A stretch of DNA of 64,000 nucleotides from Gemmatimonadota bacterium (lineage in GTDB: Bacteria; Gemmatimonadota; Gemmatimonadetes; Palauibacterales; Palauibacteraceae): the NCBI GenBank assembly GCA_958295535.1, contig OY282356.1, positions 2,244,611 through 2,308,610 of the forward strand, given 5' to 3'. Shown here piece by piece: positions 20,188-32,901 of the stretch. The position numbers and the translations under genes were made by a program. Every line of letters starts with the position of its first letter. Position 1 is the first letter of the stretch. The notes beneath the pieces were generated by a model. The model worked only from the letters and a program-made list of their open reading frames with translations. It searched no databases and was not told where the DNA came from.

Positions 20188-23100
20188 CTACTTCAGCCTG
20201 ATCCTGCCGAGGAGTCCTATGCTTCGTTCAGTGGACTGGACGCCGACGACGACCTGCTCGCCGAAGAGTTCCACGCTCACGCGCAGGCGCCGGGTCTGTC
20301 CTTCGCCGGGCTCGCCCAGCACGGTCCAGCGCGTCCCCGCGTTCAGGCGGTAGCCCGAGGCGCCCTGGCGACTCCAGCGGCCGAACGGGGTCACTTCGCC
20401 GCCTCCGGGTAGGCGGACGCCCCAGCCCACCTCCATCGCCACCCGGTCCGGCGTCCAACCGGGGGCGCCGCCTGCCGCCGAACCCCGCCCCATGGACTGC
20501 TGGCCGAGCCCGCCCTGCGCCTGCCACATGGTCTCGGCGCCACTGGCCGCATTGCCCCACGACGGCTCCACCGACAACGACGGGCCGCCCCGTTCGCGCC
20601 CGGGCTGCAGCCGCAGGGCGAGGCTCGCGCCCCAGTCGCGGAAGCCCTTCGCCTGGTGGGCCAGCAGCGTCCGGCCGCGGGCGTCCAAGCTGAGTCCGGT
20701 GGCTCGGTGCGTGAACCCGAGCTCGCCGCCGGCTTCCGCGCCGATGCCCGTCTCCGCGTCGCCGCCGTCGAACCGCCCGCCAAGCTCGAGACGCGTGCGC
20801 AGCAAAGCGCCTCCAACAGTCCACTGGCCGCCCACCTCCGACGCCAGCCGCACGCGCCGGGCGTTGGCCGTGACGCCGGGCAGCTCCGCCACATCCGCGG
20901 AGTTGATGCGCACCGAGAACGCATCGGCCTTCAGCGCCAAGGGGCCGACGAGCTCCTGGCGCACTCCCAACGCCCCCATGAGCATCCCCAGACCGGCGCT
21001 GAACCGCCCGCCGGCCACCTCTTCCAGATCGGCGCTGCCCCGGCCCGCGCCCACCAAGCCCCACAGCCCCAGGCCGGCCCGGGGCGACCAGTGCAGATAC
21101 GGATAGAGGCTGGTCAGGCGGGCGTCCACCGAGCCCGCCCCGTTGATCTCGCTCTCGAAGTCGGATTCCATCCCGCTGCGCGATCCGGCCAACCCGACCA
21201 GCAGGCCCGAGCCGAACCGGTAGTCCAGCCCCGCGTAGGCCGAGCGCGTCCGGCCCTCGATGCTGAACCCGTCGTCGGGGCCGCCCTTGAACTCGCCCGC
21301 GTTGGCCTGTCCCCACAGCGTCCATCCGGCGCGGGACCCGGCCTGCGGGGCGACGGCGCTAGAATCGCCGCCGTGCAAGCCGCCACCGCCGAACGACAGC
21401 TGGAAGGAGCTCTGCGACAGCAAGTTCCGGACGGACACCGGGTTGAGCTCGATCCCGCCCGGCTCGTCCTCCCTCTCCCCCTCTTCCCCGCCTTCCCGCT
21501 GGCCGCCGAACGCTACGCCGCCGCCGAACCCGCCACCGCCGAACCCGGCCATGCCGTCCGGATCGTTCAAGCCGTTGCCGAACAACAGCATCCCCGCGTC
21601 AATCGCCCTGCCAGCCCCGCCGCCCGAGCCGAGGAGAGGATTGGCGGGAATCGATAGCTGCACTCCCAGCAGGCCGGACGCGCCGCGCGCCAGCGCCGCC
21701 ACCCCGCACCCCTCGCCGCCGAACGCGCCGCAGCCCACGGAACGCCCGCCCACCTGCATGTGCGACCGGCCCAGCGCGCCGGACGACTCGATGCCCAGCC
21801 GCCCGCCGATAGCCTCGACCGTCTCCGTGCCCAGCGACCGGCCGAACGCAGCCAGCGACCGCTGCAGCGCCCGCGACCGCTCCGACCTCGACGCCTCGAC
21901 CGTCACCCGGACCCGTTGCACGGCCGTCAGCCCGGCCGGGTCCCGCGCCGTCACCGTCACCACCGCAGCCCCGATCTCCTTGGGCGCGATCGACAGCCGG
22001 CCCGTCTCCGACACCGACGACTCCGCCACGCCCGACACCGACGACTCCGCCACGTAGCTCAACGCGTCGCCATCCGGATCGCGGAAGTACGGCCCCAGAC
22101 CCTCTTCCGCCGCCGCGCCATACGCCTCCAACGCCTTCGGCGCGATCGCGCCCACCGGCTCCGGGCCCTCGTTCACGTTCAGAACCGTCACCGTAACGGT
22201 CGCCTCGTCGGTCAACCCGCCCGCATCCGCGACCCGCACCGTCAGCGCGTACTCAGGCGGCCCGTCCTCGTAGTTCTCTCCACTGCCCACGTAACGCACA
22301 TCGCCGCTCGCGGCGTCCACCTCGAAACGCCCGCCGCCGCCCGCCGCCAAGCTGTACGCCAGCGCGTCGCCCTCGTCCACATCCGTCGCCTTCACTTGCC
22401 CCAGGCCGCGCGGCCCCGGCGCATTCTCGGGCAACTCGAAAGCGTACGCAGAGTCGGCGAACACCGGCGCCTCGTTCACGTTCACCACCGCCACCGTCGC
22501 AGGCACGCGATCCGACAGCCCGGCCCGGTCGGCGACCACCACCTCGAACTCCCAGCCCGATGGACCCGCCTCCGCGTCCTCGCCACCGCCCACGTACCGC
22601 ACCGCGCCGCTCGCGGCGTCCACCTCGAAGCGCGACGCATCCTGGCCCGCCAAGCTGTACGCCAGCGTGTCCGACCGGTCAGAATCCGTCGCCTGCGCCA
22701 CGCCCAGGTCCACCGGGCCGGGCGCATTCTCCTCGATCTCGAACTCGTAGCTCCGCTCCGCGAACCGCGGCGCCTCGTTACGGTCCAGCAGCGCCACCGC
22801 CACCATTACCTCGGCCGCGATGCCGCCTAGGTCCGTCGCGCTCACCATAAGCTCCAGCTTTGCCGCGCCCGCCTCCGCGTCCTCGCCGCCGCCCACGTAC
22901 CGCACCTGCCCGCTCGCGGCATCCACCTCGAACCGCTCGCCGTCGCCCGCCGACAGCGCGTACGCCAACCGGTCGCCAGCGTCCGGATCCGCCGCCGACA
23001 CTTGCCCCAGGACCAGAGGTCCGGCCACGTTCTCCGCCAGCTCGAAAGCGTACGCAGAGTCGGCGAACGCCGGAGCCTCGTTCTCGTTCAACAGCGTCAC

Positions 23101-25329
23101 CGTCACCAGAACTCGCGAACTCAAGCCGGTCAGATCAGTCGCGCTCGCCTCCAACTCCCAGCTCCCAGCGCCGTCCGCCTCGAAGTCCTCGCCCACTCCT
23201 ACGTACCGCACCTCGCCCGTCGCCGACTCCACACTGAACAGCTCGGTGTCGCCAGACTCCATCCGGTACGTCACGGTGTCGCCCTCATCCGCGTCCGTAG
23301 CCTCCACAAAGCCCAGAGCCACAGGCCCTGCCAAGTTCTCCGGCAACCCGAACTCGTACGCCGGAGCGCCGAACTTCGGCTCCGCCCCGCCCAGCACCTT
23401 GTGGCTAGAGCTGTTATCGATAGCGCTCGCGCCCAACCCCAGCAGAGCATCGGCACTCCCGCCAGCCACATCGATCGTCCCGCCGTTCAGCGACAGAGCG
23501 GCCGCCCCGATGCCTAGCCCGTCCGTGTCAACGTCGCCCGTCACCACCGTGTACCGGAACACCAGCGACGCCGTGCCCGAACCCGAGGCGTAGGACGCCC
23601 GCCGGGTCTGCGAGCCGATCGTCAACCCCAGCTGCGGCGTCCCCGTCACGTCCACAGCCTTGTTGAACGTCACCGTGACTTCGATCGTCTCGCCACGAAC
23701 GAACGTGCCGCCCGCCGGTGGCGAACCGATGGCCACGCCCGCCACCCCAGGCGGACCCAGGCTGCTGTCCACGTAAACCGCGACTCCACCGCCAGGTATA
23801 GGCAGCACTAGGCTTGCCGCAAACGTCCCGTCGCGAGCGTCGTTGATCGACCCGCCGTTCAGCGTCAGCGCATTCCTCGCAACGGTGATACCGTGGACGG
23901 CGTTGTCGCCCACCTGCACCGTGTAGCGGAACAGTAGGGTAGTCGTCCCAGAGCCCGAGACGTAGTTCGCTTGGCGCGTCACCGAGCCGATCCCCAGTGC
24001 CACCTGAGGCGTCCCCGTCACCGTCACCGTGCGGGTGAATATCGCCGTAAACTCGATCTGCTGGCCCAGCTCATGCGTGCGGCTAAGAGAGACGCCTCGC
24101 GTAGGATAGAAGTTCATAACCGACGCCGCCGTGAACGTCCCGCCCGCCACCTTGTGGCCGGAGCTGTTCTCGATCGCGTTCGCGCCCAGACCCAGCAGTG
24201 CGTCCAACGCCCCGCCAGCCACCTTGATCGTCCCGCTGTTCAGCGTCAGCGCGGTAGCCCCGATGCTGATTCCGTCGTTGTCCGCATCCGCCTGCACCAC
24301 CGTGTACCGGAACGCCAGCGACGCCGTGCCCGTCCCCGAGGCGTAGGACGCCTGCCGCGTCGCCGAGCCGATCCCCAGCCCCAGCCGCGGCGTCCCCATC
24401 ACGTCCACAGCCTTGTTGAACGTCACCGTGACCTCTATCCGCTCGCCACGCTCGAACGTGTCGCCCACCACCGGCGAGTTCAGCGTTACGCCCGTCACCC
24501 CCGGCGGCCCCTGGCTGCCGTCCACCAAGTGGCTGGAGCTGTTCGTGATCGCGCTAGTACCCAGACCCAGGCTCGCCGCCGTCGTCCCGTCGCGAGCGTC
24601 GTTGATCGACCCGCTGTTCAGCCCCAGCGCACTCGCCGCGACGCTGATCCCGTCCGTGTCGGCGTCCGTCGCCACCACCGTGTACCCGAACGTCAGGCTG
24701 GCCGTCCCCGTGCCCGAGGCGTAGTTCGCTTGGCGCGTCGCCGTGCCGATCGTCAGTGCCAGCTGCGGCGTGCCGGTCACGGCCACGGGCCTGCTGAACG
24801 TCACCGTCACGCTAATCTGCTCGCCCAGCCCGTAGGTGTCGCCGCTCGCCGGGCTGCTCGCTATCGCCGTGCCGCTCACCACCGGCGCAGTCAACGCCGT
24901 GCCGTCCACCTTGTGGCCAGAGGCGTTGGTTATCACATTACCCTGTAGATTCAGACTGACCGTGCTTCCGAACGAGTTATAGACGTGCCCGGTCAACGCC
25001 CCTGTCGCGATGCTGATTCCGTCGGTGTCCACGTCTGCTGTCACCACCGTGTACCGGAACACCAGCGAGCTCGTCGCGGTATTCGCGGGCGTAATAGTGT
25101 TCGCTTGGCGCGTCGCCGAGCCGATCGTCAGCGCCAGACTCGGCGCGAAGTTGGAGCGCCGGTGCACGGTGCCGCCGAAACGCACCGTGACCTCGATGGT
25201 CTCGCCACGCTCGTACGTGGTGCCCACCCACGGCGTGCTGCTGATGGCCACGTTGTTGACAATCTGTGCCTTCGCGTCGCCCGCAACCGTCATGGCGAGC
25301 GCCAAGGCAACAGCTAAGCATCTACGCAT
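20188..25329 (-). CDS. Autotransporter-type adhesin: 5 Ig-like repeats + 4 cadherin-like domains + Ig-like domain + C-terminal beta-barrel
   Basis: ORF 20188..25419. A better start is ATG 25329, after GGAGGAG, giving the signal MRRCLAVALALAMTVAGDAKA/Q. Cadherin motifs (P/A/E)EN, DxD and N/DxNExP occur four times. A helical linker is followed by WTLWGQA...YAGLDYRF...LYPYLHW barrel strands. Confidence 0.88.
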   Translation of the reverse strand: MRRCLAVALALAMTVAGDAKAQIVNNVAISSTPWVGTTYERGETIEVTVRFGGTVHRRSNFAPSLALTIGSATRQANTITPANTATSSLVFRYTVVTADVDTDGISIATGALTGHVYNSFGSTVSLNLQGNVITNASGHKVDGTALTAPVVSGTAIASSPASGDTYGLGEQISVTVTFSRPVAVTGTPQLALTIGTATRQANYASGTGTASLTFGYTVVATDADTDGISVAASALGLNSGSINDARDGTTAASLGLGTSAITNSSSHLVDGSQGPPGVTGVTLNSPVVGDTFERGERIEVTVTFNKAVDVMGTPRLGLGIGSATRQASYASGTGTASLAFRYTVVQADADNDGISIGATALTLNSGTIKVAGGALDALLGLGANAIENSSGHKVAGGTFTAASVMNFYPTRGVSLSRTHELGQQIEFTAIFTRTVTVTGTPQVALGIGSVTRQANYVSGSGTTTLLFRYTVQVGDNAVHGITVARNALTLNGGSINDARDGTFAASLVLPIPGGGVAVYVDSSLGPPGVAGVAIGSPPAGGTFVRGETIEVTVTFNKAVDVTGTPQLGLTIGSQTRRASYASGSGTASLVFRYTVVTGDVDTDGLGIGAAALSLNGGTIDVAGGSADALLGLGASAIDNSSSHKVLGGAEPKFGAPAYEFGLPENLAGPVALGFVEATDADEGDTVTYRMESGDTELFSVESATGEVRYVGVGEDFEADGAGSWELEASATDLTGLSSRVLVTVTLLNENEAPAFADSAYAFELAENVAGPLVLGQVSAADPDAGDRLAYALSAGDGERFEVDAASGQVRYVGGGEDAEAGAAKLELMVSATDLGGIAAEVMVAVALLDRNEAPRFAERSYEFEIEENAPGPVDLGVAQATDSDRSDTLAYSLAGQDASRFEVDAASGAVRYVGGGEDAEAGPSGWEFEVVVADRAGLSDRVPATVAVVNVNEAPVFADSAYAFELPENAPGPRGLGQVKATDVDEGDALAYSLAAGGGGRFEVDAASGDVRYVGSGENYEDGPPEYALTVRVADAGGLTDEATVTVTVLNVNEGPEPVGAIAPKALEAYGAAAEEGLGPYFRDPDGDALSYVAESSVSGVAESSVSETGRLSIAPKEIGAAVVTVTARDPAGLTAVQRVRVTVEASRSERSRALQRSLAAFGRSLGTETVEAIGGRLGIESSGALGRSHMQVGGRSVGCGAFGGEGCGVAALARGASGLLGVQLSIPANPLLGSGGGAGRAIDAGMLLFGNGLNDPDGMAGFGGGGFGGGVAFGGQREGGEEGEREDEPGGIELNPVSVRNLLSQSSFQLSFGGGGLHGGDSSAVAPQAGSRAGWTLWGQANAGEFKGGPDDGFSIEGRTRSAYAGLDYRFGSGLLVGLAGSRSGMESDFESEINGAGSVDARLTSLYPYLHWSPRAGLGLWGLVGAGRGSADLEEVAGGRFSAGLGMLMGALGVRQELVGPLALKADAFSVRINSADVAELPGVTANARRVRLASEVGGQWTVGGALLRTRLELGGRFDGGDAETGIGAEAGGELGFTHRATGLSLDARGRTLLAHQAKGFRDWGASLALRLQPGRERGGPSLSVEPSWGNAASGAETMWQAQGGLGQQSMGRGSAAGGAPGWTPDRVAMEVGWGVRLPGGGEVTPFGRWSRQGASGYRLNAGTRWTVLGEPGEGQTRRLRVSVELFGEQVVVGVQSTERSIGLLGRIRLK

Positions 25330-25484
25330 CTCTTGTCTCCTCCGACCGTGAACACCAGCTTTGTTCTCGCCAGGATGTCCTCCAGCGGCAATGCGCGCAA
25401 CAGCAGCGGCGCCTCCCAAAATGCCTCATCCTGCACGCACAAGGCTACTCCAAGCGGTCGGGGTCAGCCAGAGGGATTGCCGGC

Positions 25485-25700
25485 TCATGGCTCCCGCGTG
25501 AAGAACAGCCCGTCGGGCAAGAAGGCGCTCCGCACGGCCTCGCGGTCTGCGGCCCCGACGCCTGCGCGGCACATCGCCCCCAGCCAGCGCGCCCGGACCG
25601 TCCGAACCACTTCGGCGAAGACCGCTTCCGCCTCCTCGCGGCTCATCATGAACCGTCCTGCGCCAGCCACCAAGTGGTTCTTCCTGGCTCGTACGGGTAG
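25485..25700 (-). pseudogene. C-terminal fragment of a HipA-family toxin
   Basis: NHLVAGAGRFMMSREEAEAVFAEVVRTVRARWLGAMCRAGVGAADREAVRSAFLPDGLFF resembles, from memory, the terminal helices of HipA-like kinases. No kinase core is present upstream. Confidence 0.55.
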
Positions 25701-25848
25701 ACGTGGACCGGGACTTCGCCTGCCGCGTCTCCGCCACTCTACAGGCCAAGGCGGGAGCGATCGCCGCTGCCACTCGCAATTGCCATCATCCGCTCTAGCG
25801 GGTACGGTTCGCAGCATTCGCTTTTCCCTGCCGGAAGATTAGGAAGAT

Positions 25849-27030
25849 GTGCCCGAGATAATGTGCTCGCGTTCGACCGCAGCCGGTGCCGAAGACCGTC
25901 CGACTGGTTCGGCGAAGTTGATCCCAACGCTCTCCGGGGCGTCTCTGCTGGCATTTTGCCTTGCCGCGTCGCCCCTTCATGCCCAGATCCCCGGCGATTT
26001 GGCGGCCGCTCCCGGCGATGTCCTCTACCAAGCATCGTGCGCCAACTGCCACGGGGCCGACGGACGCGGGGCCGACCCTGCTCTTCTCGCCTTCGAGGAA
26101 GATATCCCCGACTTCACCGACTGCGACTTCGCCGCGCGGGAGCCCGACGCAGACTGGATCGCCGTGGCCCACGAGGGAGGGCCAGTTCGGGGATTCAGCG
26201 AGATGATGCCCGCCTTCCGGGACGCGCTGACGCCGGAGCAGCTCCAGCTGGTCATGGACTACATACGGACGTTGTGCACCGATTCCGACTGGCCCCGAGG
26301 CGAACTCAACCTGCCCCGTCCGCTGGTCACGGGGAAGGCATACCCCGAGGACGAATGGGTCGTGGCGGCCGACCTCCCCGTCGAGGGAACGGGAGGGGAG
26401 ACGACGGCCGAGTTCATCTACGAGAAACGGTTCGGTCCGCGGAGCCAGTGGAGGATCGCGATTCCGTACCAGTGGGAGCGCGGAGAGGGCGGCGGCGACC
26501 GGTGGGGACGGCTGGGCGAGGTGGAGATCGGGGTCAAGCACGCCGTCTTCCACAGCTTCGAGTCCGGCTCTATCGTGTCGTTGTCGGGCGATCTGCACTT
26601 GCCGACGGGCTCCGGCCCGGCGGCGGAACCCGGCGGCGCTTCGATCGGGGGTTCCCTGCGCGTCGGTCAGCTGCTCGGGGAGGATTCGTTCCTGCAGGGA
26701 CAGACCGGTGCGCGACTGCCGCTGTACGAGGGAGGGCGCGCGCGAGTGTTCGGACGGATCGTCTGGGGGCGCAGCTTCGCCAGCGGGAAGTGGGGGCGCT
26801 CATGGACCCCGATGGTGGAAGTGATCGCGAACCGCGACTTGGGCTCGGACGGGGCCGAGACGAGCGCCGACGTGGTGCCCCAGATTCAGATCGCGTTGAA
26901 CACCCGCCAGCATGTGCTGGCCAACATCGGCTTGCTGGTCCCGGTAACGGCCCGGGAGGGACGCCAGGTCCGCCTGATCGCCTACGTGTTGCTGGACTGG
27001 TTCGACGGCGGCTTCTGGGAGGGATGGTAG
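25849..27030 (+). CDS. Monoheme c-type cytochrome fused to a putative outer-membrane beta-barrel
   Basis: Signal peptide (...LAASPLHA/Q), CANCH heme motif and distal MMPAF Met. The C-terminal ~250 aa are amphipathic strands (LGEVEIGVKH, VSLSGDLHLPTG, RLIAYVLLDWF) with an aromatic terminus. Confidence 0.8.
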   Translation: MPEIMCSRSTAAGAEDRPTGSAKLIPTLSGASLLAFCLAASPLHAQIPGDLAAAPGDVLYQASCANCHGADGRGADPALLAFEEDIPDFTDCDFAAREPDADWIAVAHEGGPVRGFSEMMPAFRDALTPEQLQLVMDYIRTLCTDSDWPRGELNLPRPLVTGKAYPEDEWVVAADLPVEGTGGETTAEFIYEKRFGPRSQWRIAIPYQWERGEGGGDRWGRLGEVEIGVKHAVFHSFESGSIVSLSGDLHLPTGSGPAAEPGGASIGGSLRVGQLLGEDSFLQGQTGARLPLYEGGRARVFGRIVWGRSFASGKWGRSWTPMVEVIANRDLGSDGAETSADVVPQIQIALNTRQHVLANIGLLVPVTAREGRQVRLIAYVLLDWFDGGFWEGW

Positions 27031-27037
27031 GCCGGCC

Positions 27038-28750
27038 GTGATGGCTCTTCGCCCGGACATCCGGTTCGGCGGCTCCGGCGTCGGCAGGCTCGGTACGCCG
27101 ACCCGCATTAGGGCGGACGCCCGTGTCCGCTTCTTCGGATTCGCGCTCCTCTGCGGCTGCGTCGCGGTTGCCGCGTCAGGCCGCTCCAATCCCGTTTCCG
27201 CCCAGGATGGGGAACCGTTCGCGACGGCCGACCGCTGCATCGCTTGTCATCAGGGCGTGACCGCCAGGGACGGGACGGGCGTGTCGATCGGCCACGACTG
27301 GCGCGCGTCCATGATGGCCAACAGCGCCCGCGACCCGTATTGGCAAGCCGCAGTTCGGCGCGAAGTCATGGACCACCCGGAAGCGGCGCGGGAGATCGAG
27401 GCCCAATGCTCGCGTTGCCACATGCCGATGGCCAACGCCGTCGCGGAGCACCAAGGCGGCATGGGCCAAGTCTTCGCCAACCTGCCCGCCGGAAGCGACG
27501 ACAGGATGGCCGCGCTGGCAGCCGACGGAGTGTCCTGCACCGTCTGCCATCGCGTGGCCGCCGCCAACTTGGGGACGGAAGACAGCTTCTCCGGCGGCTT
27601 CGACATCGATCTCGCGACGGCGTCCGATGGCAGTCCCGTCTTCGGTCCCTTCGAGCCCGACAGCGGCGGGGCCGGGATCATGCGCTCGGCCACGGGCTTT
27701 CGTCCCCAGGAAGGTGCGCACGTTCAGTCGGCCGGGTTGTGCGCGACGTGCCACACCCTCTTCTCCCACTCCGTCCGCGGCGGCGGCGAAGCGGGCCCCG
27801 AATTCCCCGAACAGGTCCCCTACGTGGAGTGGATGGCGAGCGATTTCGCCGGACAACGGAGCTGCCAGGACTGCCACATGCCCGAAGTGGAAGAGGAAGT
27901 GCCCGTGACCATGGTGCTGGGGCGGCCCCGGCCGGAGGTGTCGAGGCACGTCTTCCGGGGCGGCAACTTCTTCATGCTTCGGATGCTGGACCGCTACCGA
28001 GACGAGCTGGGGACGGCCGCGCTTCCCGCCGAGATGGAGCTGTCCGCTCTTCGCACCGAGGACCATCTGCGGAGCGCGACCGCAAGCGTGGCCGTGACCG
28101 GCGCCGAAGTACAGGCCGGCCCCCGCGGCAGGCGGCTGGCCTTCGAGTTGGAGGTGCGCAACCGCGCGGGGCACAAGTTCCCCACGGGCTACCCGTCGCG
28201 GAGGGCGTGGCTTCACGTTGTCGTGACCCGCGGCGGCGGACAGGTCGTCTTCGAGTCGGGCGCCTTGGCTGATGACGGCAGCATCGCCGGAGACGACCAC
28301 GACGAGAATGGCTCCGCCTACGAGCCCCACCACACCGAGATCCGGTCGGCGGCCCAAGTGCAGGTCTACCAGTCCGTGATGACCGACGGCGCGGGACAGG
28401 TCACGACCGGCTTGGCGTCGGCGGAGGCGTGGGCGAAGGACAACAGGCTGCTTCCGGAGGGCTTTGACGCGCGGGCGGCGGGCGAACGGGCCGCTGTCCG
28501 GGGCGCGGCAGACTCCGACGGCGACTTCGGCCCCGGCGGCGACAGGGTCCGCTATTCGATCGAGGTCGGGCGCCACGACGGGCCGTTCACCGTCACGGCG
28601 CGGCTCCGCTTCCAGCCGATCGGCTACCGCTGGGCCGAGAACCTGGCCGCCTACGACGCCTTCGAGACCCGCCGCTTCGTCCGCTATTACCGGGAGATGG
28701 CCGCCAGCTCGGCGCTCACGATCGCGGAGGCCGTCGCCGTCGCGAACTGA
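27038..28750 (+). CDS. Exported pentaheme cytochrome c
   Basis: Five CxxCH motifs: CIACH, CSRCH, CTVCH, CATCH, CQDCH. It has an N-terminal hydrophobic signal and the GHKFPTG..SRR.WL motif common in c554-like multiheme proteins. Confidence 0.88.
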   Translation: MMALRPDIRFGGSGVGRLGTPTRIRADARVRFFGFALLCGCVAVAASGRSNPVSAQDGEPFATADRCIACHQGVTARDGTGVSIGHDWRASMMANSARDPYWQAAVRREVMDHPEAAREIEAQCSRCHMPMANAVAEHQGGMGQVFANLPAGSDDRMAALAADGVSCTVCHRVAAANLGTEDSFSGGFDIDLATASDGSPVFGPFEPDSGGAGIMRSATGFRPQEGAHVQSAGLCATCHTLFSHSVRGGGEAGPEFPEQVPYVEWMASDFAGQRSCQDCHMPEVEEEVPVTMVLGRPRPEVSRHVFRGGNFFMLRMLDRYRDELGTAALPAEMELSALRTEDHLRSATASVAVTGAEVQAGPRGRRLAFELEVRNRAGHKFPTGYPSRRAWLHVVVTRGGGQVVFESGALADDGSIAGDDHDENGSAYEPHHTEIRSAAQVQVYQSVMTDGAGQVTTGLASAEAWAKDNRLLPEGFDARAAGERAAVRGAADSDGDFGPGGDRVRYSIEVGRHDGPFTVTARLRFQPIGYRWAENLAAYDAFETRRFVRYYREMAASSALTIAEAVAVAN

Positions 28751-28954
28751 CGCGCGGCGACTCGCCGCAAGGCGCGCCGTCAAAGCGGGTCAAGCCATGA
28801 TCCCAGGATATCGGTCGCGAGGCCACTCGGCCCTTTCGCCGTCGTACCGGGCGAGTTCGGACGGCAGAGACGAGGGCCTCATCTTCGCTTTGGAAGTCAG
28901 CAGCGGCATTCCCCGCAGCGCGCCGGCATCCCGGCTCCTGTCTCCTAACGCCCG

Positions 28955-30064
28955 TTAGCCGGGATAGCCCAACCTCTCCAGCCCCGGCCGACAGGCTTCC
29001 GCCAGCGCCTCCCGGTCGGCGGCATCCAGTCGTTCGAAGTTCGTCGGCGACCGCGGCGGGCGCGGCAGCCGGGACGCCCCGCGCACCCAACCATCGTCTT
29101 CGAGTTCCGGCGAGACGAACCGAATCAGCCGCCGCAGCTGCGGTTCCGGCGTCGCTTGCAAGTCCTCGAAAGCCACGTTCAGCAGCCTGTCCGGCGGAAG
29201 ATCGGCGAACAGCTCGTGCGCGTGCCCGATCATGCCGGCCCAGAAGGCGCCGAAGTCCGCAAGAGTCAACTTGTCGTAGGGCAGCTTGGCTGGATCCAAA
29301 AAGCGGGTGGCCAGAGGCTCCGACCAGAGAGTGATCCACTCGCCGAAACGGCCCCGCGACAACGAAGACATGATGTCGAATCCCCTCGAGCGGAGCGCGT
29401 GTATCGTGGCCAAGATCATGCGGAAGAGGTAGTGGCGGCTCATGGATATGGCCGTTTCCCGGCCGTCCCGGTACACATGCACGACTCGGGCATCGGGGAA
29501 CGCGCGGAGCAGCCGGGCGCCGAAGAGCATCGAACCACCGGATCTCTCGACCCATACGTCCGCTCCCAGCCGTCGGCAGAGCCACTCGAACAAGTCGCGG
29601 AAGTGGGCCGCGGGAGCTTGGCGGGGACGCCCGTGCACGACCGGCCCCAGCTCGTCGAAGAGCGCGTCGTGGGCGCGCGTCAGGTGAGGGAGAGCGCTGC
29701 ACAGGATCGGTGGCACATCGTCGCGGCGGTAGCGGGCGCCGGGGGCGCCGAAGGGATAGGCGAGTTCGCTGAAATCCTCTCGCAGCATGAGCTTGGTGCG
29801 CTTCCGCTGGTAGGCGTACCAGCCCCACATCTGCTCGCCCGTAGCTCTGCGCCGGCGCATCGCCCCCGTCCCCACGAAGGCGAAGAACTCGGACAGGCTC
29901 AGGACCCGGGGGTGCAGATTCAGCATGTTCGACACCATCGTCGAACCGCATCGCCCGGTGCTGAGCACGAACACCGGAGGAAGCCTCGGACTAGGCGAAG
30001 ATGTCTTGCGGTTTGGAAGAGCCCCCGGATGATCCGGTTGCGCCCGGAGGGCCGAAGCAGGCAC
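28955..30064 (-). CDS. PAPS-dependent sulfotransferase
   Basis: 5'-PSB loop VFVLSTGRCGSTMV and 3'-PB motif VHVYRDGRETAIS; also VAFEDL...P...LRRL..F. Start uncertain. Confidence 0.88.
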   Translation of the reverse strand: MPASALRAQPDHPGALPNRKTSSPSPRLPPVFVLSTGRCGSTMVSNMLNLHPRVLSLSEFFAFVGTGAMRRRRATGEQMWGWYAYQRKRTKLMLREDFSELAYPFGAPGARYRRDDVPPILCSALPHLTRAHDALFDELGPVVHGRPRQAPAAHFRDLFEWLCRRLGADVWVERSGGSMLFGARLLRAFPDARVVHVYRDGRETAISMSRHYLFRMILATIHALRSRGFDIMSSLSRGRFGEWITLWSEPLATRFLDPAKLPYDKLTLADFGAFWAGMIGHAHELFADLPPDRLLNVAFEDLQATPEPQLRRLIRFVSPELEDDGWVRGASRLPRPPRSPTNFERLDAADREALAEACRPGLERLGYPG

Positions 30065-30107
30065 CTAGCGCGCCGGTCGCGTCCGAAGGGCCGAAGCAGG
30101 CACCTAG
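30048..30107. repeat. 39-bp-period direct repeat over the sulfotransferase start
   Basis: agggccgaagcaggcacctag at 30048-30068 and 30087-30107. Confidence 0.85.
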
Positions 30108-30120
30108 TGCGCGGCCGGCG

Positions 30121-31302
30121 TCACCAGGGCGATGCCGCCTCCGCTTTCAGCTTGTCGGGCAGCCGGTAGCTGAGGTCGTCGATCATCGCGGCATCCATGA
30201 GGAACATGAACTGGTCGCCCCACCACCGGCTCGCCACCTTGGGTGCCGCCCGGTGCAGCGTGTCGTGCACCCGCCGCTTGATCCGCATCCAGCGGAGCAG
30301 GCCCGCCGTCGCCATCTTGGGGAAGCCTAGCTGGTCGGAAAGCTCGTTGCCCAAGAGCGCTCTGGACACGCGGAAGGCATGGTTCTGAAACTCCCGCTGC
30401 TTGGACGGCTCGTCCAGGCCGGCGACCAGCGGCAGCGCCATGACCAAGCGTTGAGCGATCACCGACGCCTCCTCGCCGGGAGGGGGCTCGCAAGCTACCG
30501 CAACATCGCGAAACGCGAGCGTGGCTGCCTCGTCGCCCTCGAACAGGAGGGCGTTCGGCGTGCCCACCAGCCACGACGCGTAACGCCATATCTGCATGAA
30601 TGCGGTGCGGGTCTCCGTATCCAGGTCGGCGCCCAGCCGGTGCGCCTCCTGCAGCAAAGAGGCCGAGAAGTTGGCCGACGAGAGCCCCATGTGCGCAGCG
30701 CTGATCGGAGCGCCAAAGACCGACGGGTCCCATTCGCCGGAGTCGCGGATCAAGCGGCGAACCTGCGCATGCACCAAGCGGATGCGGACGGAGAGCTTCC
30801 ATCCGTCGCCTTCGCGCTCCAGTGCCCCGGGCAGCATGATCTCGATGAAGTGGCGGGTGTTCTGGCGAATGCGCCTCAGGCCGTGCACAGTCCTGACACG
30901 TCCCGTGGCGTAGAACGCCTTGCTGATGAGCGTGGCCGCATTGCGCAGCGTGACGACGAAGAAAGCAGGAATGAACAGGTCCGAGTTGGCGTAGAAGGCG
31001 CGGCATCCGGCGTGCACCGCGTTGGCGTCCCACCAGGCGGGCGTCTTCTCCGCCCGCTCGAACAGCTCGCGCAAGGCGGCCGGTGCGGCAGCGAACTCCT
31101 TCGCATCTCCGTCCATTCCGGCTCGTATGAAACGGTGGCCGCGGGAAGGCTCGAAGCCGGCTAGCGCGTCGGCGGCCGCGTCCGCGGCCGGATCGCCCAT
31201 GGACACATGGCGCATGTACTCGTCCGCCAAGTCGGGGACTAGCTGCTTGGCCCTGGCATAGCCCTTCTCGTAAGCTGGCGGGATGTTCATTGGGGTCGGC
31301 AT
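30121..31302 (-). CDS. MpaB/Lcp-like (DUF2236) heme oxygenase family protein
   Basis: RIRLVHAQVRRLI matches the Lcp-type R-x2-H-x3-R heme-ligand helix. W....G.PIS and WRY...L.G motifs are present. No Tat signal. Confidence 0.85.
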   Translation of the reverse strand: MPTPMNIPPAYEKGYARAKQLVPDLADEYMRHVSMGDPAADAAADALAGFEPSRGHRFIRAGMDGDAKEFAAAPAALRELFERAEKTPAWWDANAVHAGCRAFYANSDLFIPAFFVVTLRNAATLISKAFYATGRVRTVHGLRRIRQNTRHFIEIMLPGALEREGDGWKLSVRIRLVHAQVRRLIRDSGEWDPSVFGAPISAAHMGLSSANFSASLLQEAHRLGADLDTETRTAFMQIWRYASWLVGTPNALLFEGDEAATLAFRDVAVACEPPPGEEASVIAQRLVMALPLVAGLDEPSKQREFQNHAFRVSRALLGNELSDQLGFPKMATAGLLRWMRIKRRVHDTLHRAAPKVASRWWGDQFMFLMDAAMIDDLSYRLPDKLKAEAASPW

Positions 31303-31905
31303 CCTCCTCCTCCCCGAGACGCGATCTCAAGCCACGCGAGGCGTGGGCAAGGCCCGCCGGCAAGGGCCCTCGGCGACCTCGTCGCCTGTTCGCTCACCTG
31401 GGTTGGCAAAGCGTACGCCGACGAGGCAGGGGCCTGTCGGCCGAGATCATGGCCGCAACAAATCAGGCGTTCGAGCACGCGTTAATTTGTGTCGTTGGCT
31501 TGGATGCGGGATTACGGTCTACCCGACTGCTGCGTCAATATCCGTCACCTCCCGTTCGGCGTGTACGTGTGACCGATTCAGGGTTGCCGAACTGAAACAA
31601 CATAATCGCCCGTCGCCGCTCGCGGCCAGTCTCGCCGCCGCCAAGCCCACGAGGCGGGGTCGGTCGTTTGCGGACCCGACCGCCGGATGGAGACGACATT
31701 TCCGAGCTTTTGCCGCATTATGGTGTTTAGACGCCATAGAAACGCTTTACGATTCTCTATTTGTGGAGTCGCTCCATTTTCGTGGAAGGAGGGAGCCACG
31801 ATGCCTTGGCCCGCCCGCCTGCCCCGTGGTATCTTTTCTGGGCGGCCGAAGAGCGATATCCGCCTGACGAGATACAGGTCTTCTAGCAACAGGAGCCAAA
31901 GAGAG

Positions 31906-32898
31906 ATGGCCCGAGCAGACCTGATCCTGCGCCTCGTGAAGGCCAGCCGGACGGGCGACGATGCCCAGATTCGGCGGTCTGTGGAGGCTCTCGCCGCCGA
32001 CGAGCGCGCCAAGAACCACACCGTCTTCGCGGACCGCCTGCTGGCTCTCCTCAATATGGATGACGGCCGCAGGCGCCAACCAGCGCCGATTCCCATCCGC
32101 TCGTCGGCCGGGCCTCTCGTTACGGAACAGACGCCCGCGCGACGTCTTGACGACATGATCCTGTCCGGCGACGCGGAAGAATCCATCCGGGAGCTCGTGT
32201 CCGAGCAACATCGCGCGGACTTGCTCCGATCCTACAACCTCGAGCCGCGAAATCGCGTTCTCCTCGCCGGTCCTCCCGGCAACGGCAAGACCACTCTTGC
32301 CGAAGCGGTCGCCGACGCCTTGAGCGTCTCGTTCGTGGTTGTTCGGTACGAAGCGGTGATCGGCAGCTACCTCGGCGAGACCGCGCAACGAATCAACCAA
32401 GTGTTCGAGTACGCCAGGTCGCGCCAATGCGTATTGTTCCTTGACGAATTCGACGCAATCGGCAAGGAACGCGGCGATGTGCACGAGACTGGGGAAATCA
32501 AGCGGGTAGTCAGTTCGCTACTGCTACAGATCGACGCTCTCCCGAGCTACGTTGTGGTCGTGACGGCCAGCAACCACCCCGAACTCCTCGATCGCGCCGT
32601 TTGGCGCCGGTTTCAGATACGGCTGGAGTTGGCGCCCCCCACGCAAGGGCAGATCGAGGAATGGTTCCGAAGGTTCGAGAGCAGAACCGGTCAATCGCTC
32701 GGCTTTTCGTCTCGGAGCTTGGCCCAGCGGCTGCGTGGGGCCAGCTTCGCGGAAGTGGAAGACTTCGGCACCGACGTGCTGCGCAGAGTCGCGCTGGATC
32801 AGCCGAACGGAAGCGCCAAGCCGCTTGTCGAAAGGAAGCTTCGGCACTGGAAGAAGCGGTACTCTCCGACTCCCTCCCCGATGGATAACTCCTTCTAG
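31906..32898 (+). CDS. AAA+ ATPase, IetA-like
   Basis: Walker A GPPGNGKT, Walker B LFLDEFD and SRH ASNHPELLDRAVWRRF. IGSYLGET and GEIKRVVSSLL are typical of S8-associated ATPases. ATG 31906 follows AGGAG. Confidence 0.92.
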   Translation: MARADLILRLVKASRTGDDAQIRRSVEALAADERAKNHTVFADRLLALLNMDDGRRRQPAPIPIRSSAGPLVTEQTPARRLDDMILSGDAEESIRELVSEQHRADLLRSYNLEPRNRVLLAGPPGNGKTTLAEAVADALSVSFVVVRYEAVIGSYLGETAQRINQVFEYARSRQCVLFLDEFDAIGKERGDVHETGEIKRVVSSLLLQIDALPSYVVVVTASNHPELLDRAVWRRFQIRLELAPPTQGQIEEWFRRFESRTGQSLGFSSRSLAQRLRGASFAEVEDFGTDVLRRVALDQPNGSAKPLVERKLRHWKKRYSPTPSPMDNSF

Positions 32899-32901
32899 GC
32901 C

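Follow-up and report, generated by a model that had tools for sequence, protein, structure and literature searches.

A cytochrome c-barrel fusion gene and its linked pentaheme cytochrome gene: a candidate two-protein redox system at the outer membrane

What could a cell do with a cytochrome c that is fused to a small outer-membrane barrel and encoded beside a pentaheme cytochrome? Such a pair occupies positions 25849-28750 of a 64,000-nucleotide stretch of Gemmatimonadota DNA, the whole of which is here called the window; all features described below lie on its + strand. Both open reading frames of the two-gene unit reported in the first-pass annotation were confirmed, together with the 7-bp gap between them (27031-27037). 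Gene 1 (25849-27030) encodes an outer-membrane fusion of a cytochrome c with a 12-strand barrel, 393 aa long when read from GTG 25849. An AGGAAG stretch at 25841-25846 is spaced 2 nt from this GTG and 14 nt from the in-frame ATG 25861, and a database protein 98% identical to the gene 1 product is 389 aa long; because of this spacing and this length, the true start is probably ATG 25861, giving 389 aa. Gene 2 (27038-28750) encodes an exported pentaheme cytochrome of the PHC family with 570 aa. A Shine-Dalgarno-like stretch, GGGAGGGA, lies within the 3' end of gene 1 (27017-27024), 13 nt ahead of GTG 27038 and 16 nt ahead of ATG 27041, and is, judged from sequence, a candidate ribosome-binding site of gene 2.

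The N-terminal part of gene 1 had been read as a signal peptide followed by a His/Met monoheme domain, and the motifs and Pfam matches bear this out. The putative signal peptide region spans 25849..25983 (residues 1-45, ...LLAFCLAASPLHA) and precedes Q46, the first invariant alignment column among gene 1 homologues, before which cleavage may occur. The class I monoheme cytochrome c domain, delimited by Pfam and invariant columns, lies at 26008..26274 (residues 54-142); it matches Cytochrom_C PF00034 with an E-value of 1.4e-9 and PF13442 with 2.7e-9, and its PDB sequence matches are small c552 cytochromes. The heme motif CANCH (C64-A-N-C-H68) is at 26038-26052, and M120 within M119-M-P-A-F123 is the presumed heme Met ligand. 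Two extra cysteines that had also been pointed out, in FTDCDF and RTLCTD, correspond to C92 and C143 and are invariant in 31 homologues. In the AF2 single-chain model, the cytochrome domain had low confidence, with pLDDT <50 for residues 75-125.

The ~250 aa of amphipathic strands described earlier for the C-terminal part were modeled by AF2 as a barrel, in which the last ~225 residues form 12 strands with pLDDT values of 77-95 (26353..27000, residues 169-384). The best fold matches of this barrel were all 12-stranded (FapF, COG4313, KdgM and NanC), with FapF 5o65 at the top (Z 20.6, rmsd 3.1, 220 residues aligned) and the COG4313 channel 4rl8 at Z 19.8, rmsd 3.4 and 217 residues aligned. PF13557 (Phenol_MetA_deg) was detected at E<=0.01 in 15 of the 31 aligned gene 1 homologues (best 1.1e-6), and the nearest ESM Atlas clusters of the barrel part carry the name MetA-pathway proteins. 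The window's own gene 1 protein gave no match to PF13557 at E<=1, and a fusion of the sister subfamily (locus L083) reached E 0.0095 and 16.4 bits, with the cut-off at 22. The earlier suggestion of a small barrel of the COG4313/MetA type is supported by these fold matches and by PF13557 in the homologues. The C-terminal tail FDGGFWEGW, which together with the stop codon spans 27001..27030, ends in Trp within a run of invariant columns (D383-W393); outer-membrane barrels usually end in a terminal aromatic residue. Directly after strand 5 (residues 241-251) follows P252-T253-G254, with the consensus LPTGD and with G254 conserved in at least 90% of 31 sequences, and a PTG at the base of the loop after strand 5 is a feature of FapF according to the part of PMC5557850 cited here.

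The cytochrome and barrel domains are joined by a linker (26275..26352, residues 143-168, ...WPRGELNLPRPLVTGKAYPEDEW) that is nearly invariant in 31 sequences and is a candidate lumen plug. At a linker pLDDT of only 46-69, residues 153-168 of the model align to the FapF plug region (residue 92 onward) and residues 160-168 to the inserted N-terminus of COG4313 Pput2725 (residue 2 onward); the plug features of both barrels are taken from parts of PMC4493636 and PMC5557850. The linker would probably occupy the barrel lumen as a plug. That the FapF and COG4313 barrels are plugged is in itself an observation against solute entry of the Cyc2 kind. Presuming simple residue alternation on the AF2 strands, the lumen face would be polar and net acidic, with ~9 conserved acidic and 4 conserved basic positions, and the invariant charged residues E169, E192, R194, K230, R303, E324, D341 and D383 would point into it. 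The loop between strands 3 and 4, extracellular by standard topology, carries His/Asp-rich inserts in 17 of 109 homologues; together, acidic lumen and outer loops give hints of a cation path. Conservation in gene 1 was highest in the cytochrome domain, the linker, the periplasmic turn NTRQH and the C-terminal tail, and the outer loops were variable.

Gene 2, previously described as an exported five-heme protein, does begin with a hydrophobic signal-like segment, followed by a heme-binding cap (27200..28072, residues 55-345) with five CxxCH motifs at residues 67, 124, 167, 235 and 276 (27236-27250, 27407-27421, 27536-27550, 27740-27754 and 27863-27877). All ten Cys and five His of these motifs were invariant in 25 sequences, which also share exactly four invariant non-motif His (H228, H304, H379 and H431) and six invariant Met, with no invariant Cys outside the motifs and a mean column identity of 62% across four phyla. 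The AF2 model consists of a helical region (60-345) and a beta region (349-570), the latter being an Ig-like beta-sandwich (28082..28750, including the stop codon) with Ig-like structural matches at Z 8-10. This domain contains the invariant loop N375-x-A-G-H379-K-F-P-T-G-Y385-P-S-R-R389 (28160-28204). The sole significant Foldseek match of the model was 5ze8 (E 1.3e-8), which superposed on residues 59-569 with Z 18.6, rmsd 3.9 and 335 residues aligned. A profile of the 25 sequences matched 5ze8 with E 8.8e-6 and MccSep 9wt8 with E 0.072, both via the Ig-domain loop, and the HMMER alignment of this loop to 9wt8 put the invariant Y385 opposite Sec325. A match to MtrC domain II/IV in Pfam stayed below threshold (29.3 bits, cut-off 30). 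Gene 2 is a member of the PHC pentaheme family, which is named in PMC11976967 (T. tepidum c552, ExtKL, Gsu2801) and includes one characterised enzyme, MccSep.

The complex prediction for gene 1 and gene 2 scored 0.74, compared with 0.00 for the best of three controls. This score was attained by 58 of 80 solved complexes and by 2 of 110 mismatched pairs, counts that are only rough because own alignments were used. Runs shared at least 88% of contacts, with a partner pLDDT of at least 91. The predicted interface comprises residues 51, 62-67, 78-83, 110 and 118-126 of gene 1, which include the heme motif and the Met-ligand loop, and residues 64-73, 85-89, 208-218, 291-295, 327 and 329 of gene 2, around heme motif 1; it contains no barrel residue. 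Interface residues of gene 1 exceeded the remainder of the protein in conservation (0.92 vs 0.77; 9 of 10000 random sets as high), and those of gene 2 were not above background (0.76 vs 0.71; 1311 of 10000 random sets as high). In this prediction, heme 1 of the pentaheme is the docking site for the heme edge of the fused cytochrome, in agreement with the first-pass proposal of a barrel protein wired to a periplasmic multiheme partner. The heme-plugged barrel proposed along with it is unlikely, since the cytochrome heme edge faces gene 2, no barrel residue takes part in the interface, a cytochrome of ~95 residues does not fit into a barrel of 12 strands, and the linker, not the heme domain, aligns with the FapF/COG4313 plug segment.

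The two genes are tightly linked. Neighbourhood conservation had been proposed as a check on the pair, and gene 2 lay directly downstream on the same strand in 80 of the 80 related loci kept, which come from Gemmatimonadota, Acidobacteriota, Bacteroidota/Rhodothermaceae and Myxococcota. Among 301 sampled Gemmatimonadota genomes, 34 had both genes, adjacent and co-directional in 33 and adjacent on opposite strands in 1. No other neighbour was common to more than 21 of the 80 loci, and no outer-surface cytochrome gene was found among their neighbours. Gene 2 also occurs alone (genome G003). At E<=0.001, gene 1 was matched by 1997 of 8000 scored candidate clusters (90%-identity clusters), and at E<=1e-30 by 198 representatives of 50%-identity clusters; two search patterns recovered the module in 149 species-representative genomes. 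We found no published description of a cytochrome-barrel fusion paired with a pentaheme cytochrome.

Related fusions have other partners. A 47%-identical fusion was found without gene 2 in 9 of 22 genomes of the window's family (f1, G000 left out), and the downstream gene at 5 of 5 such loci examined was an ORF of 255-286 aa (~255-260 aa from the aligned start) with an invariant H...C-x2-H-x2-M motif and a CarboxypepD_reg domain. Its matches to cupredoxins were weak (PF00127, E 0.1; amicyanin, E 0.52), and PF00127 was present in 11% of the members of one Atlas cluster that matches it; from the motif and these weak matches only, we regard the protein as putatively cupredoxin-like. In a subfamily of 31-34%-identical fusions, neither partner was present within 13-14 kb at 4 of 4 loci examined. 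Since its relatives are found either beside a cupredoxin-like protein or without a partner, the fusion seems to be the part of the system that stays constant, and in the sister subfamilies the cupredoxin-like protein appears to take the relay role of the pentaheme.

Our tentative reading, to which we give somewhat less than even credence, is that the module performs redox chemistry on a solute at the outer membrane by a logic like that of Cyc2, with the pentaheme as relay. Built on the computed domain architecture, barrel type, gene linkage and predicted docking geometry, the mechanism would begin with co-translation of gene 1 and gene 2 from one operon. The gene 1 product would hold a His/Met monoheme cytochrome c in the periplasm, connected through the conserved linker, as plug, to a 12-stranded outer-membrane barrel of the FapF/COG4313 type, and the gene 2 product would be a soluble periplasmic pentaheme with a heme cap and an Ig-like stem. 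Heme 1 of gene 2, next to the heme edge that the fused cytochrome exposes, would complete a six-heme chain beneath a narrow outer-membrane channel, and no heme would cross the membrane. A small solute entering the barrel would trade electrons with the fused heme where the channel opens to the periplasm, and the pentaheme would relay electrons to or from a periplasmic pool. The solute might, as a first guess, be a metal cation such as Fe(II) and, as a second, a small redox-active organic; to our knowledge, the host lineages are not known iron oxidisers. Topology and the plug role of the linker are inferred here, as are the substrate and the direction of electron flow.

Several features of gene 2 would also suit a division of labor like that of ExtI and ExtKL, which we consider rather unlikely. 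Gene 2 would then be an enzyme, the barrel would pass its substrate or product, and the fused cytochrome would be a dedicated electron donor or acceptor at the channel mouth; chemistry would take place at the heme 2 pocket of gene 2, lined by Y385, K380, R388 and R389 of the Ig-like domain, and the enzyme would probably act on small sulfur, nitrogen or other oxyanion species. In MccSep, catalysis takes place at heme 2, hemes 1, 3, 4 and 5 have bis-His ligation, and electrons are proposed to enter at the solvent-exposed heme 1, as stated in the part of bioRxiv 10.1101/2025.11.18.688581 used here. Gene 2 shares the fold of 5ze8, keeps the Ig loop conserved with MccSep and has Tyr385 exactly opposite the catalytic Sec325; its high conservation, its exactly four invariant non-motif His and the cytochrome predicted at heme 1 point in the same direction. 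With an invariant loop at the position of the MccSep catalytic loop and four non-motif His for five hemes, gene 2 fits an enzyme better than a mere relay. Other PHC members likewise adjoin outer-membrane barrels (ExtI/ExtKL; PtdA/PtdB), and the MccSep authors leave open the outer-membrane route of its substrate (bioRxiv 10.1101/2025.11.18.688581). However, this fusion is also found beside a gene for a non-heme cupredoxin-like protein (5/5 loci examined) or with no adjacent partner (4/4 examined), which would make the fused cytochrome, and not gene 2, the steady companion of the barrel. Furthermore, gene 2 is without both defining catalytic residues of MccSep, its six invariant Met could make heme 2 an ordinary His/Met heme, it also occurs alone, and papers that cite T. 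tepidum c552, its closest solved relative, assign no activity to that protein.

It is less likely still that the barrel serves only as an anchor or assembly platform, with the fusion acting as an outer-membrane-tethered electron store or hub for periplasmic or surface proteins and with no solute flow. The plugged state of the nearest barrels in crystal structures (parts of PMC4493636 and PMC5557850), the confinement of the predicted interface to the cytochrome domain and the concentration of conservation in that domain, the linker, the NTRQH turn and the tail, with variable outer loops, would all agree with such a role. A lipid anchor would, however, be a cheaper tether; the many invariant charged residues that would face the lumen are unexpected in a passive anchor, although they might only hold the plug, and the His/Asp-rich outer loops suggest contact with something extracellular. 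We give almost no credence to a conduit of the MtrAB/PioAB type, in which a multiheme would thread the barrel and so bring electrons through the outer membrane to minerals or electrodes. All that speaks for it is that genes for a barrel and for a multiheme cytochrome stand together and that gene 2 has weak, sub-threshold similarity to MtrC, but Mtr-type barrels (MtrAB/MtoAB/PioAB) have 26 strands that sheathe a decaheme cytochrome, according to a part of PMC8406198, compared with 12 strands in gene 1. Moreover, gene 2 is a globular cap with an Ig-like domain and five hemes only, the complex prediction places it on the periplasmic cytochrome domain instead of on the barrel, and no outer-surface cytochrome gene is linked. 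Of the outer-membrane electron conduit suggested in the first-pass annotation, a membrane-spanning form of the MtrAB kind is excluded because of barrel size.

Cyc2 is the main marker gene of neutrophilic iron oxidation, and porin-cytochrome clusters mark extracellular electron transfer. Searches for neither would recognise this common module, whose hosts are abundant heterotrophic phyla that are not usually credited with outer-membrane redox chemistry. Conceivably, but with considerable doubt, the fusions form a second, convergent family of outer-membrane cytochrome-barrel oxidoreductases, unrelated to Cyc2, that are built on a 12-strand FapF/COG4313 barrel and act on an external solute through interchangeable relays, namely a PHC pentaheme at this locus, a cupredoxin-like protein in the sister lineages and, elsewhere, no relay gene in the vicinity. 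If true, common soil, sediment and sponge bacteria of the Gemmatimonadota, Acidobacteriota, Bacteroidota and Myxococcota would gain an unrecognised cell-surface oxidation or reduction of an external solute, with Fe(II), Mn(II) or a redox shuttle as candidates. If the fusion does handle such a solute, views of who cycles iron, manganese, sulfur species and humic shuttles in soils and sediments would have to be revised. With its two proteins and six hemes, the pair is also a compact system in which to study electron passage between an outer-membrane channel and the periplasm, and the PHC family, of which MccSep is the only member with known activity, gains a defined predicted partner.

Among known systems, Cyc2 of Acidithiobacillus, Zetaproteobacteria and Gallionellaceae resembles gene 1 in being one polypeptide with an N-terminal single-CxxCH cytochrome and a C-terminal outer-membrane barrel. 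In both, the cytochrome part is the most conserved region and should face the periplasm and a soluble acceptor there; both cytochromes are monoheme, and the substrate must therefore reach the heme via the pore. Cyc2 is proposed to oxidise Fe2+ entering its pore, and the part of PMC8406198 that says so defines Cyc2 by a signal peptide, one CXXCH near the N-terminus and a length of at least 365 aa; gene 1 agrees in size and heme number, with one CxxCH at residues 64-68 behind a signal-like segment and 393 aa. The same source places AXPXFAR[Q/K][T/Y] 5 residues ahead of CXXCH and PXL 4 residues behind it. Ahead of its heme site, gene 1 has PGDVLYQAS and no PxFAR, its first P-x-L (P77-A-L79) begins 9 residues past H68, and its AF2 barrel has 12 strands instead of the 16 of the OprO/OprP-like Cyc2 porin. 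The absent PxFAR and the strand number rule out gene 1 as a Cyc2, and the earlier view that the fusion arose independently of Cyc2 is supported; its barrel is FapF/COG4313-like and not Cyc2-like. Gene 1 further differs in having no sequence relationship to Cyc2, a complete class I His/Met domain of ~95 residues where Cyc2 has a short cytochrome segment, and a strictly linked pentaheme partner gene.

With the COG4313 channels (Pput2725, SphA, TcpY) and FapF, gene 1 shares the 12-strand barrel, and with FapF also the PTG after strand 5 and an N-terminal periplasmic domain on a linker; the segment before strand 1 is a candidate for occupying the lumen, as its counterpart does in those barrels. 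This domain is a cytochrome c in gene 1, whereas FapF and COG4313 have a coiled coil or nothing, and sequence similarity to both is marginal. Hydrophobic molecules, and not ions, are the presumed cargo of COG4313 channels (from a part of PMC4493636); unlike the detergent-binding lumen of the COG4313/FapF barrels, that of gene 1 would be polar and acidic.

PtdA-PtdB of marine Alphaproteobacteria and others, a putative porin-cytochrome complex, can be likened to the gene pair by description only: PtdB is encoded beside PtdA in the ptdABCDEFG cluster, whose seven genes include some for tetra- and decaheme proteins (bioRxiv 10.1101/2023.11.21.568154). Unlike gene 1, the porin is not described as cytochrome-fused in the part of that preprint used here. 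The low-potential c552 of Thermochromatium tepidum (5ze8) has five hemes, a C-terminal Ig-like domain and the Ig loop motif, as gene 2 does, but ~385 residues in the crystal against ~515 mature residues, 15-19% identity, and Ala at the position of Tyr385 in gene 2 and Sec325 in MccSep. We know of no fused-barrel partner for this soluble cytochrome.

ExtKL, which is MccSep, a pentaheme selenoprotein and polysulfide reductase, is more distantly related to gene 2 than 5ze8 is. Gene 2 is ruled out as an MccSep itself, with Tyr385 replacing the Sec and no heme-ligating Cys: MccSep has Sec325 and the heme-ligating Cys239, and gene 2 has Tyr385 and no invariant extra Cys. The part of bioRxiv 10.1101/2025.11.18.688581 used here takes as criteria a conserved Sec/Cys at 325 and the strictly conserved C239 as distal ligand of heme 2. 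The NCBIfam ExtKL model NF040886 gave gene 2 28 bits (cut-off 250), and no rhodanese (ExtH) or ExtJ gene is present at this locus. ExtI has 21 transmembrane strands and no cytochrome domain, in contrast to the 12 strands and fused cytochrome of gene 1. Even so, in ExtHIJKL of Geobacter sulfurreducens the gene of a PHC pentaheme that carries an Ig-like domain has an outer-membrane barrel gene next to it, as here, the porin-like ExtI adjoining ExtKL (part of PMC6148476). Gene 2 and MccSep have the loop N-x-A-G-H-x-x-P-x-G-X-P in common, and heme 1 is the likely redox-partner contact in both.

The cytochrome-barrel fusion (gene 1; 25849-27030, + strand; an ORF of 393 aa) and the exported pentaheme cytochrome (gene 2; 27038-28750, + strand; 570 aa) were found to be co-directional with 7 bp between them, in agreement with the two-gene unit described in the first-pass annotation. 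A GGGAGGGA stretch (27017-27024) closely precedes the start of gene 2. Based on its sequence, gene 1 probably starts at the in-frame ATG at 25861, since AGGAAG (25841-25846) lies 14 nt ahead of this codon and a database protein 98% identical to gene 1 has 389 residues. The genes flanking the pair are on the opposite strand or unrelated, so the unit is taken to comprise two genes. No promoter or terminator was found by a consensus scan of 25300-29100, for which the consensus may not suit this phylum. The four sequencing runs listed for this DNA include none of RNA; all four derive from a single sample in a single study and may be what the assembly was built from. The gene directly upstream, 20188-25419 (−), codes for a secreted protein of 1743 aa that has repeated cadherin/Big_9 domains and a Gly-rich region and shows amphipathic strands in its C-terminal part; it may be an autotransporter-like adhesin of the cell surface. 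Downstream, 28955-31302 (−) encodes a sulfotransferase (PF13469, E 1.7e-21) and an MpaB/Lcp-family oxygenase-like protein (PF09995, E 5.2e-16), neither of which is conserved beside the pair in other loci. Beyond the MpaB/Lcp gene, an AAA ATPase and an S8 peptidase (31687-35544, +) match the models for IetA and IetS (E 5.9e-143 and 0), the two components of the IetAS anti-phage defence system; the local G+C of 0.605-0.618, compared with about 0.69, suggests that this stretch is an acquired island.

In gene 1, a signal-like segment (residues 1-45) precedes residues 54-142, which Pfam assigns to cytochrome c (PF00034, E 1.4e-9; PF13442, E 2.7e-9). Among proteins of solved structure, those closest in sequence are small c552 cytochromes of class I (best E 5.9e-5). 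Across 31 homologues with 54-82% identity, the residues C64, C67 and H68, the M119-M120-P-A-F loop, the extra cysteines C92 and C143, the linker WPRGELNLPRPL-T-KAYPEDEW and the C-terminal tail LLDWFDGGF-EGW, with Trp as last residue, were invariant or nearly so. The Pfam match and these conserved motifs bear out the exported His/Met monoheme domain with two extra cysteines that had been proposed earlier. The roughly 250 residues of amphipathic strands said to follow it were recovered in an AlphaFold2 model, where residues 169-384 form 12 strands (pLDDT 77-95) and confidence is low across the apo cytochrome domain.

A Foldseek search with this model placed FapF at the top (E 1.6e-7) and the COG4313 channel Pput2725 (4rl8) at rank 26. 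Structural re-alignment gave Z 20.6 and an rmsd of 3.1 Å over 220 residues for FapF, Z 19.8 and 3.4 Å over 217 residues for 4rl8, and Z about 18 and 2.4-2.7 Å over 170-187 residues for KdgM and NanC. PF13557 (Phenol_MetA_deg) matches 15 of the 31 homologues at E<=0.01 and does not match the window's own protein, and the ESM Atlas clusters nearest to the barrel part (score 0.94) carry the name of MetA-pathway proteins. These matches are consistent with the earlier reading of a small COG4313/MetA-like barrel. As judged against the accessible part of the FapF description, a PTG motif after strand 5 is a further FapF-like feature. The FapF and Pput2725 alignments reach into residues 153-168, a low-confidence part of the model; the corresponding region, before strand 1, forms a lumen plug in the crystal structures of both proteins.

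The strand faces of the barrel divide into one hydrophobic and one polar, the polar face of the model presumably being the lumen. Its invariant charged residues are E169, E192, R194, K230, R303, E324, D341 and D383, and roughly nine acidic and four basic positions are conserved on it. In the usual barrel topology both termini are periplasmic; given this arrangement, the short strand connections of gene 1 are presumed to be periplasmic and the loop between strands 3 and 4 external. This loop was surveyed in 120 homologues among the matches listed, and 109 were left after 11 that did not have both anchor motifs were dropped. A His/Asp-rich insert with 4-10 His, for example in runs of HDHDHDH, was present in 17 of the 109 (P0037, P0073, P0090, P0106 and 13 others) and absent from the window's own protein.

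Across 25 sequences drawn from four phyla, all five CxxCH motifs of gene 2 are invariant, together with four His outside the motifs (H228, H304, H379 and H431) and six Met; no invariant Cys outside the CxxCH motifs was found in this set. Pfam and NCBIfam searches returned only sub-threshold multiheme matches, and the model for ExtKL (MccSep of Geobacter) scored 28 bits against a cut-off of 250. The AlphaFold2 model (pTM 0.73) combines a helical heme region with a confident C-terminal beta-sandwich. Its strongest structural match, and the only significant one in the PDB by Foldseek (E 1.3e-8), was Thermochromatium tepidum c552 (5ze8), a pentaheme protein like gene 2. A search independent of Foldseek aligned 335 residues of 5ze8 with model residues 59-569 (Z 18.6, rmsd 3.9), followed by generic Ig-like domains with Z below 10. 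The gene 2 family profile matches 5ze8 at E 8.8e-6 and the MccSep structure 9wt8 at E 0.072, in both cases through one Ig-like-domain loop. Here N375-R-A-G-H-K-F-P-T-G-Y385-P-S-R-R389 of gene 2 aligns with N-H-A-G-H-S-I-P-D-G-U325-P-T of MccSep, so that the invariant Tyr385 occupies the position of the catalytic Sec. In the accessible text of its description, MccSep is defined by Sec/Cys325 and Cys239 (bioRxiv 10.1101/2025.11.18.688581). Gene 2 has neither residue and was rejected as an MccSep; it ranks as a relative rather than a member. The wider family of gene 2 is called PHC in the available part of a cable-bacteria paper (PMC11976967).

The first-pass annotation had envisaged the barrel protein as wired to this multiheme partner, and the two are predicted to dock. 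With the mature parts of both proteins and custom alignments, the median complex score of three runs was 0.74, compared with 0.00 for the best of three controls; in calibration, this mark was attained by 58 of 80 complexes with a solved structure and by 2 of the 110 mismatched pairs, counts that are only rough here. The runs share at least 88% of contacts, with a partner pLDDT of at least 91. On gene 1 the interface comprises residues 51, 62-67, 78-83, 110 and 118-126, which include the heme motif and the Met-ligand loop, and no barrel residues take part. On gene 2 it comprises residues 64-73, 85-89, 208-218, 291-295, 327 and 329, around heme motif 1; in MccSep, the accessible text proposes electron entry at heme 1 and describes hemes 1, 3, 4 and 5 as bis-His and heme 2 as His/Cys239 (bioRxiv 10.1101/2025.11.18.688581). 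Conservation at the gene 1 interface exceeds that of the remaining residues (0.92 vs 0.77; reached by 9 of 10000 random sets), and conservation of the gene 2 interface was not above background (0.76 vs 0.71; 1311 of 10000). The prediction supports binding between gene 1 and gene 2.

Conservation of the neighbourhood, which had been named as a check on the pairing, was evident across phyla. A pattern-based scan, with each species represented by one genome, yielded 190 candidate stretches, 149 of which encode a gene 1 relative. The best 80 of these 149 loci came mostly from Longimicrobiales and other Gemmatimonadota, and also from Aminicenantes, Thermoanaerobaculia, other Acidobacteriota, Rhodothermaceae/Bacteroidota and one Myxococcota MAG. 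In all 80 kept loci, including four truncated at a contig end, the gene 1 relative is followed by a co-directional gene 2 homologue. No third conserved gene was found in these loci. Disregarding antisense ORFs of gene 1 that arose from greedy ORF calling, the commonest other neighbours, an unnamed family (21/80), a MacB/FtsX permease (19/80) and an AMP-binding enzyme (17/80), are housekeeping types, and at these frequencies the idea of a larger conserved operon was rejected.

Among 301 evenly sampled Gemmatimonadota genomes, a gene 1-like protein (E<=1e-20) was present in 60 genomes, patchily distributed over 28 of 127 genera, and gene 2 (E<=1e-10) in 36. When the two tables are read together, 34 genomes hold both, adjacent and co-directional in 33; the exception (G049:C107:730-3764) has them side by side in opposite orientation. 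The window's closed 3.07-Mb genome carries a single copy of the module. One gene 1 homologue (G018:C62:9707-10811, −) is split into two adjacent matches, one to profile positions 23-122 and one to 123-387, pointing to a frameshift or assembly error.

The remaining 26 of the 60 genomes have no gene 2 and fall into groups of 9 and 17. The nine belong to the window's own family. In all five loci fetched from them (L083:5936-6712, −; L084:6240-7022, −; L085:5343-6203, −; L086:5942-6709, −; L087:7529-8305, +; coordinates of the partner), the fusion has 47-48% identity to gene 1 and the gene after it is an ORF of 255-286 aa (about 255-260 aa from the aligned start) with a signal-like N-terminus, a C-terminal CarboxypepD_reg domain and an invariant H150...C188-x2-H191-x2-M194, the signature of type 1 copper sites. 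Database matches were weak, at E 0.1 to PF00127, at E 0.52 to amicyanin and to an Atlas cluster in which 11% of members have PF00127, and no copper-protein match was significant in Pfam, NCBIfam or PDB profile searches; the invariant pattern and these hints give this partner a tentative label of cupredoxin-like. The group of 17 consists of 16 genomes of family f3 and one fragment, with a shorter fusion (31-34% identical to gene 1, 324-342 aa, same tail ...LLWD-x-DG-L-RGW). Neither gene 2 nor the cupredoxin-like partner occurs within 13-14 kb in the four loci fetched for this type (L088:6353-7345, +; L089:6477-7466, +; L090:6588-7616, −; L091:6156-7130, −). In two of these, L088 and L090, the ORFs within a few kb include a putative Tat-signal protein and a putative membrane protein resembling cytochrome b, as judged by N-termini only. 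The pentaheme can also stand alone, as one genome (G003; L092:4843-6630, −) encodes a 595-aa gene 2 homologue with no cytochrome-barrel gene alongside. Because its partner is a pentaheme, a cupredoxin-like protein or none nearby, the cytochrome-barrel fusion is the constant element and the neighbour the variable one.

The hemes cannot span the outer membrane, so an external substrate must come to them. For the fusion with its pentaheme we tentatively favour a Cyc2-like logic, at somewhat less than an even chance, because three observations tie the barrel to its fused heme and not to gene 2: the fusion is kept where the partner differs or is absent, the presumed lumen is lined by invariant polar residues, and some members have outer loops that look metal-binding. 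A small solute would pass the gene 1 barrel and, at its periplasmic mouth, swap electrons with the His/Met heme of the fusion, from where the docked pentaheme may relay electrons in the direction of the periplasm via hemes 1, 3 and 4. The chief alternative, which we regard as possible but rather doubtful, is an ExtI/ExtKL-like logic in which gene 2 would be the enzyme, with its active site at the invariant Tyr/Lys/Arg loop beside heme 2, the barrel its substrate channel and the fused cytochrome its redox partner. MccSep (ExtKL) is described as a periplasmic polysulfide reductase (bioRxiv 10.1101/2025.11.18.688581).

A pure anchor role of the gene 1 barrel is improbable and ranks behind both leading readings, and some other explanation holds a still smaller share. 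An Mtr-like wire also ranks behind the two and is very improbable: Mtr-type conduits have a 26-strand barrel around a decaheme, as given in the available text of PMC8406198, whereas the module combines 12 strands with a pentaheme. An Mtr-type conduit was rejected on these grounds, and the candidate outer-membrane electron conduit of the first-pass annotation is not upheld in this form. Secretion of the gene 2 product through the barrel, in the manner of FapF, was also rejected by inference, since heme attachment and folding of c-type cytochromes take place in the periplasm.

Cyc2 proteins carry AXPXFAR[Q/K][T/Y] before the heme site, PXL after it and a 16-strand porin, according to the accessible part of PMC8406198. 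All three features are missing from gene 1, which was rejected as a Cyc2; the absence of the PxFAR motif had been recognised earlier. The literature matches listed were metagenome surveys and papers on Cyc2, Mtr and Ext, and among them we found no published description of the fusion or of the pair. Pairings of a porin with a pentaheme cytochrome do appear in the accessible parts of two reports, as ExtI/ExtKL (PMC6148476) and as the uncharacterised PtdA/PtdB (bioRxiv 10.1101/2023.11.21.568154). We rate the module as belonging among the cytochrome-porin fusions and porin-cytochrome modules.
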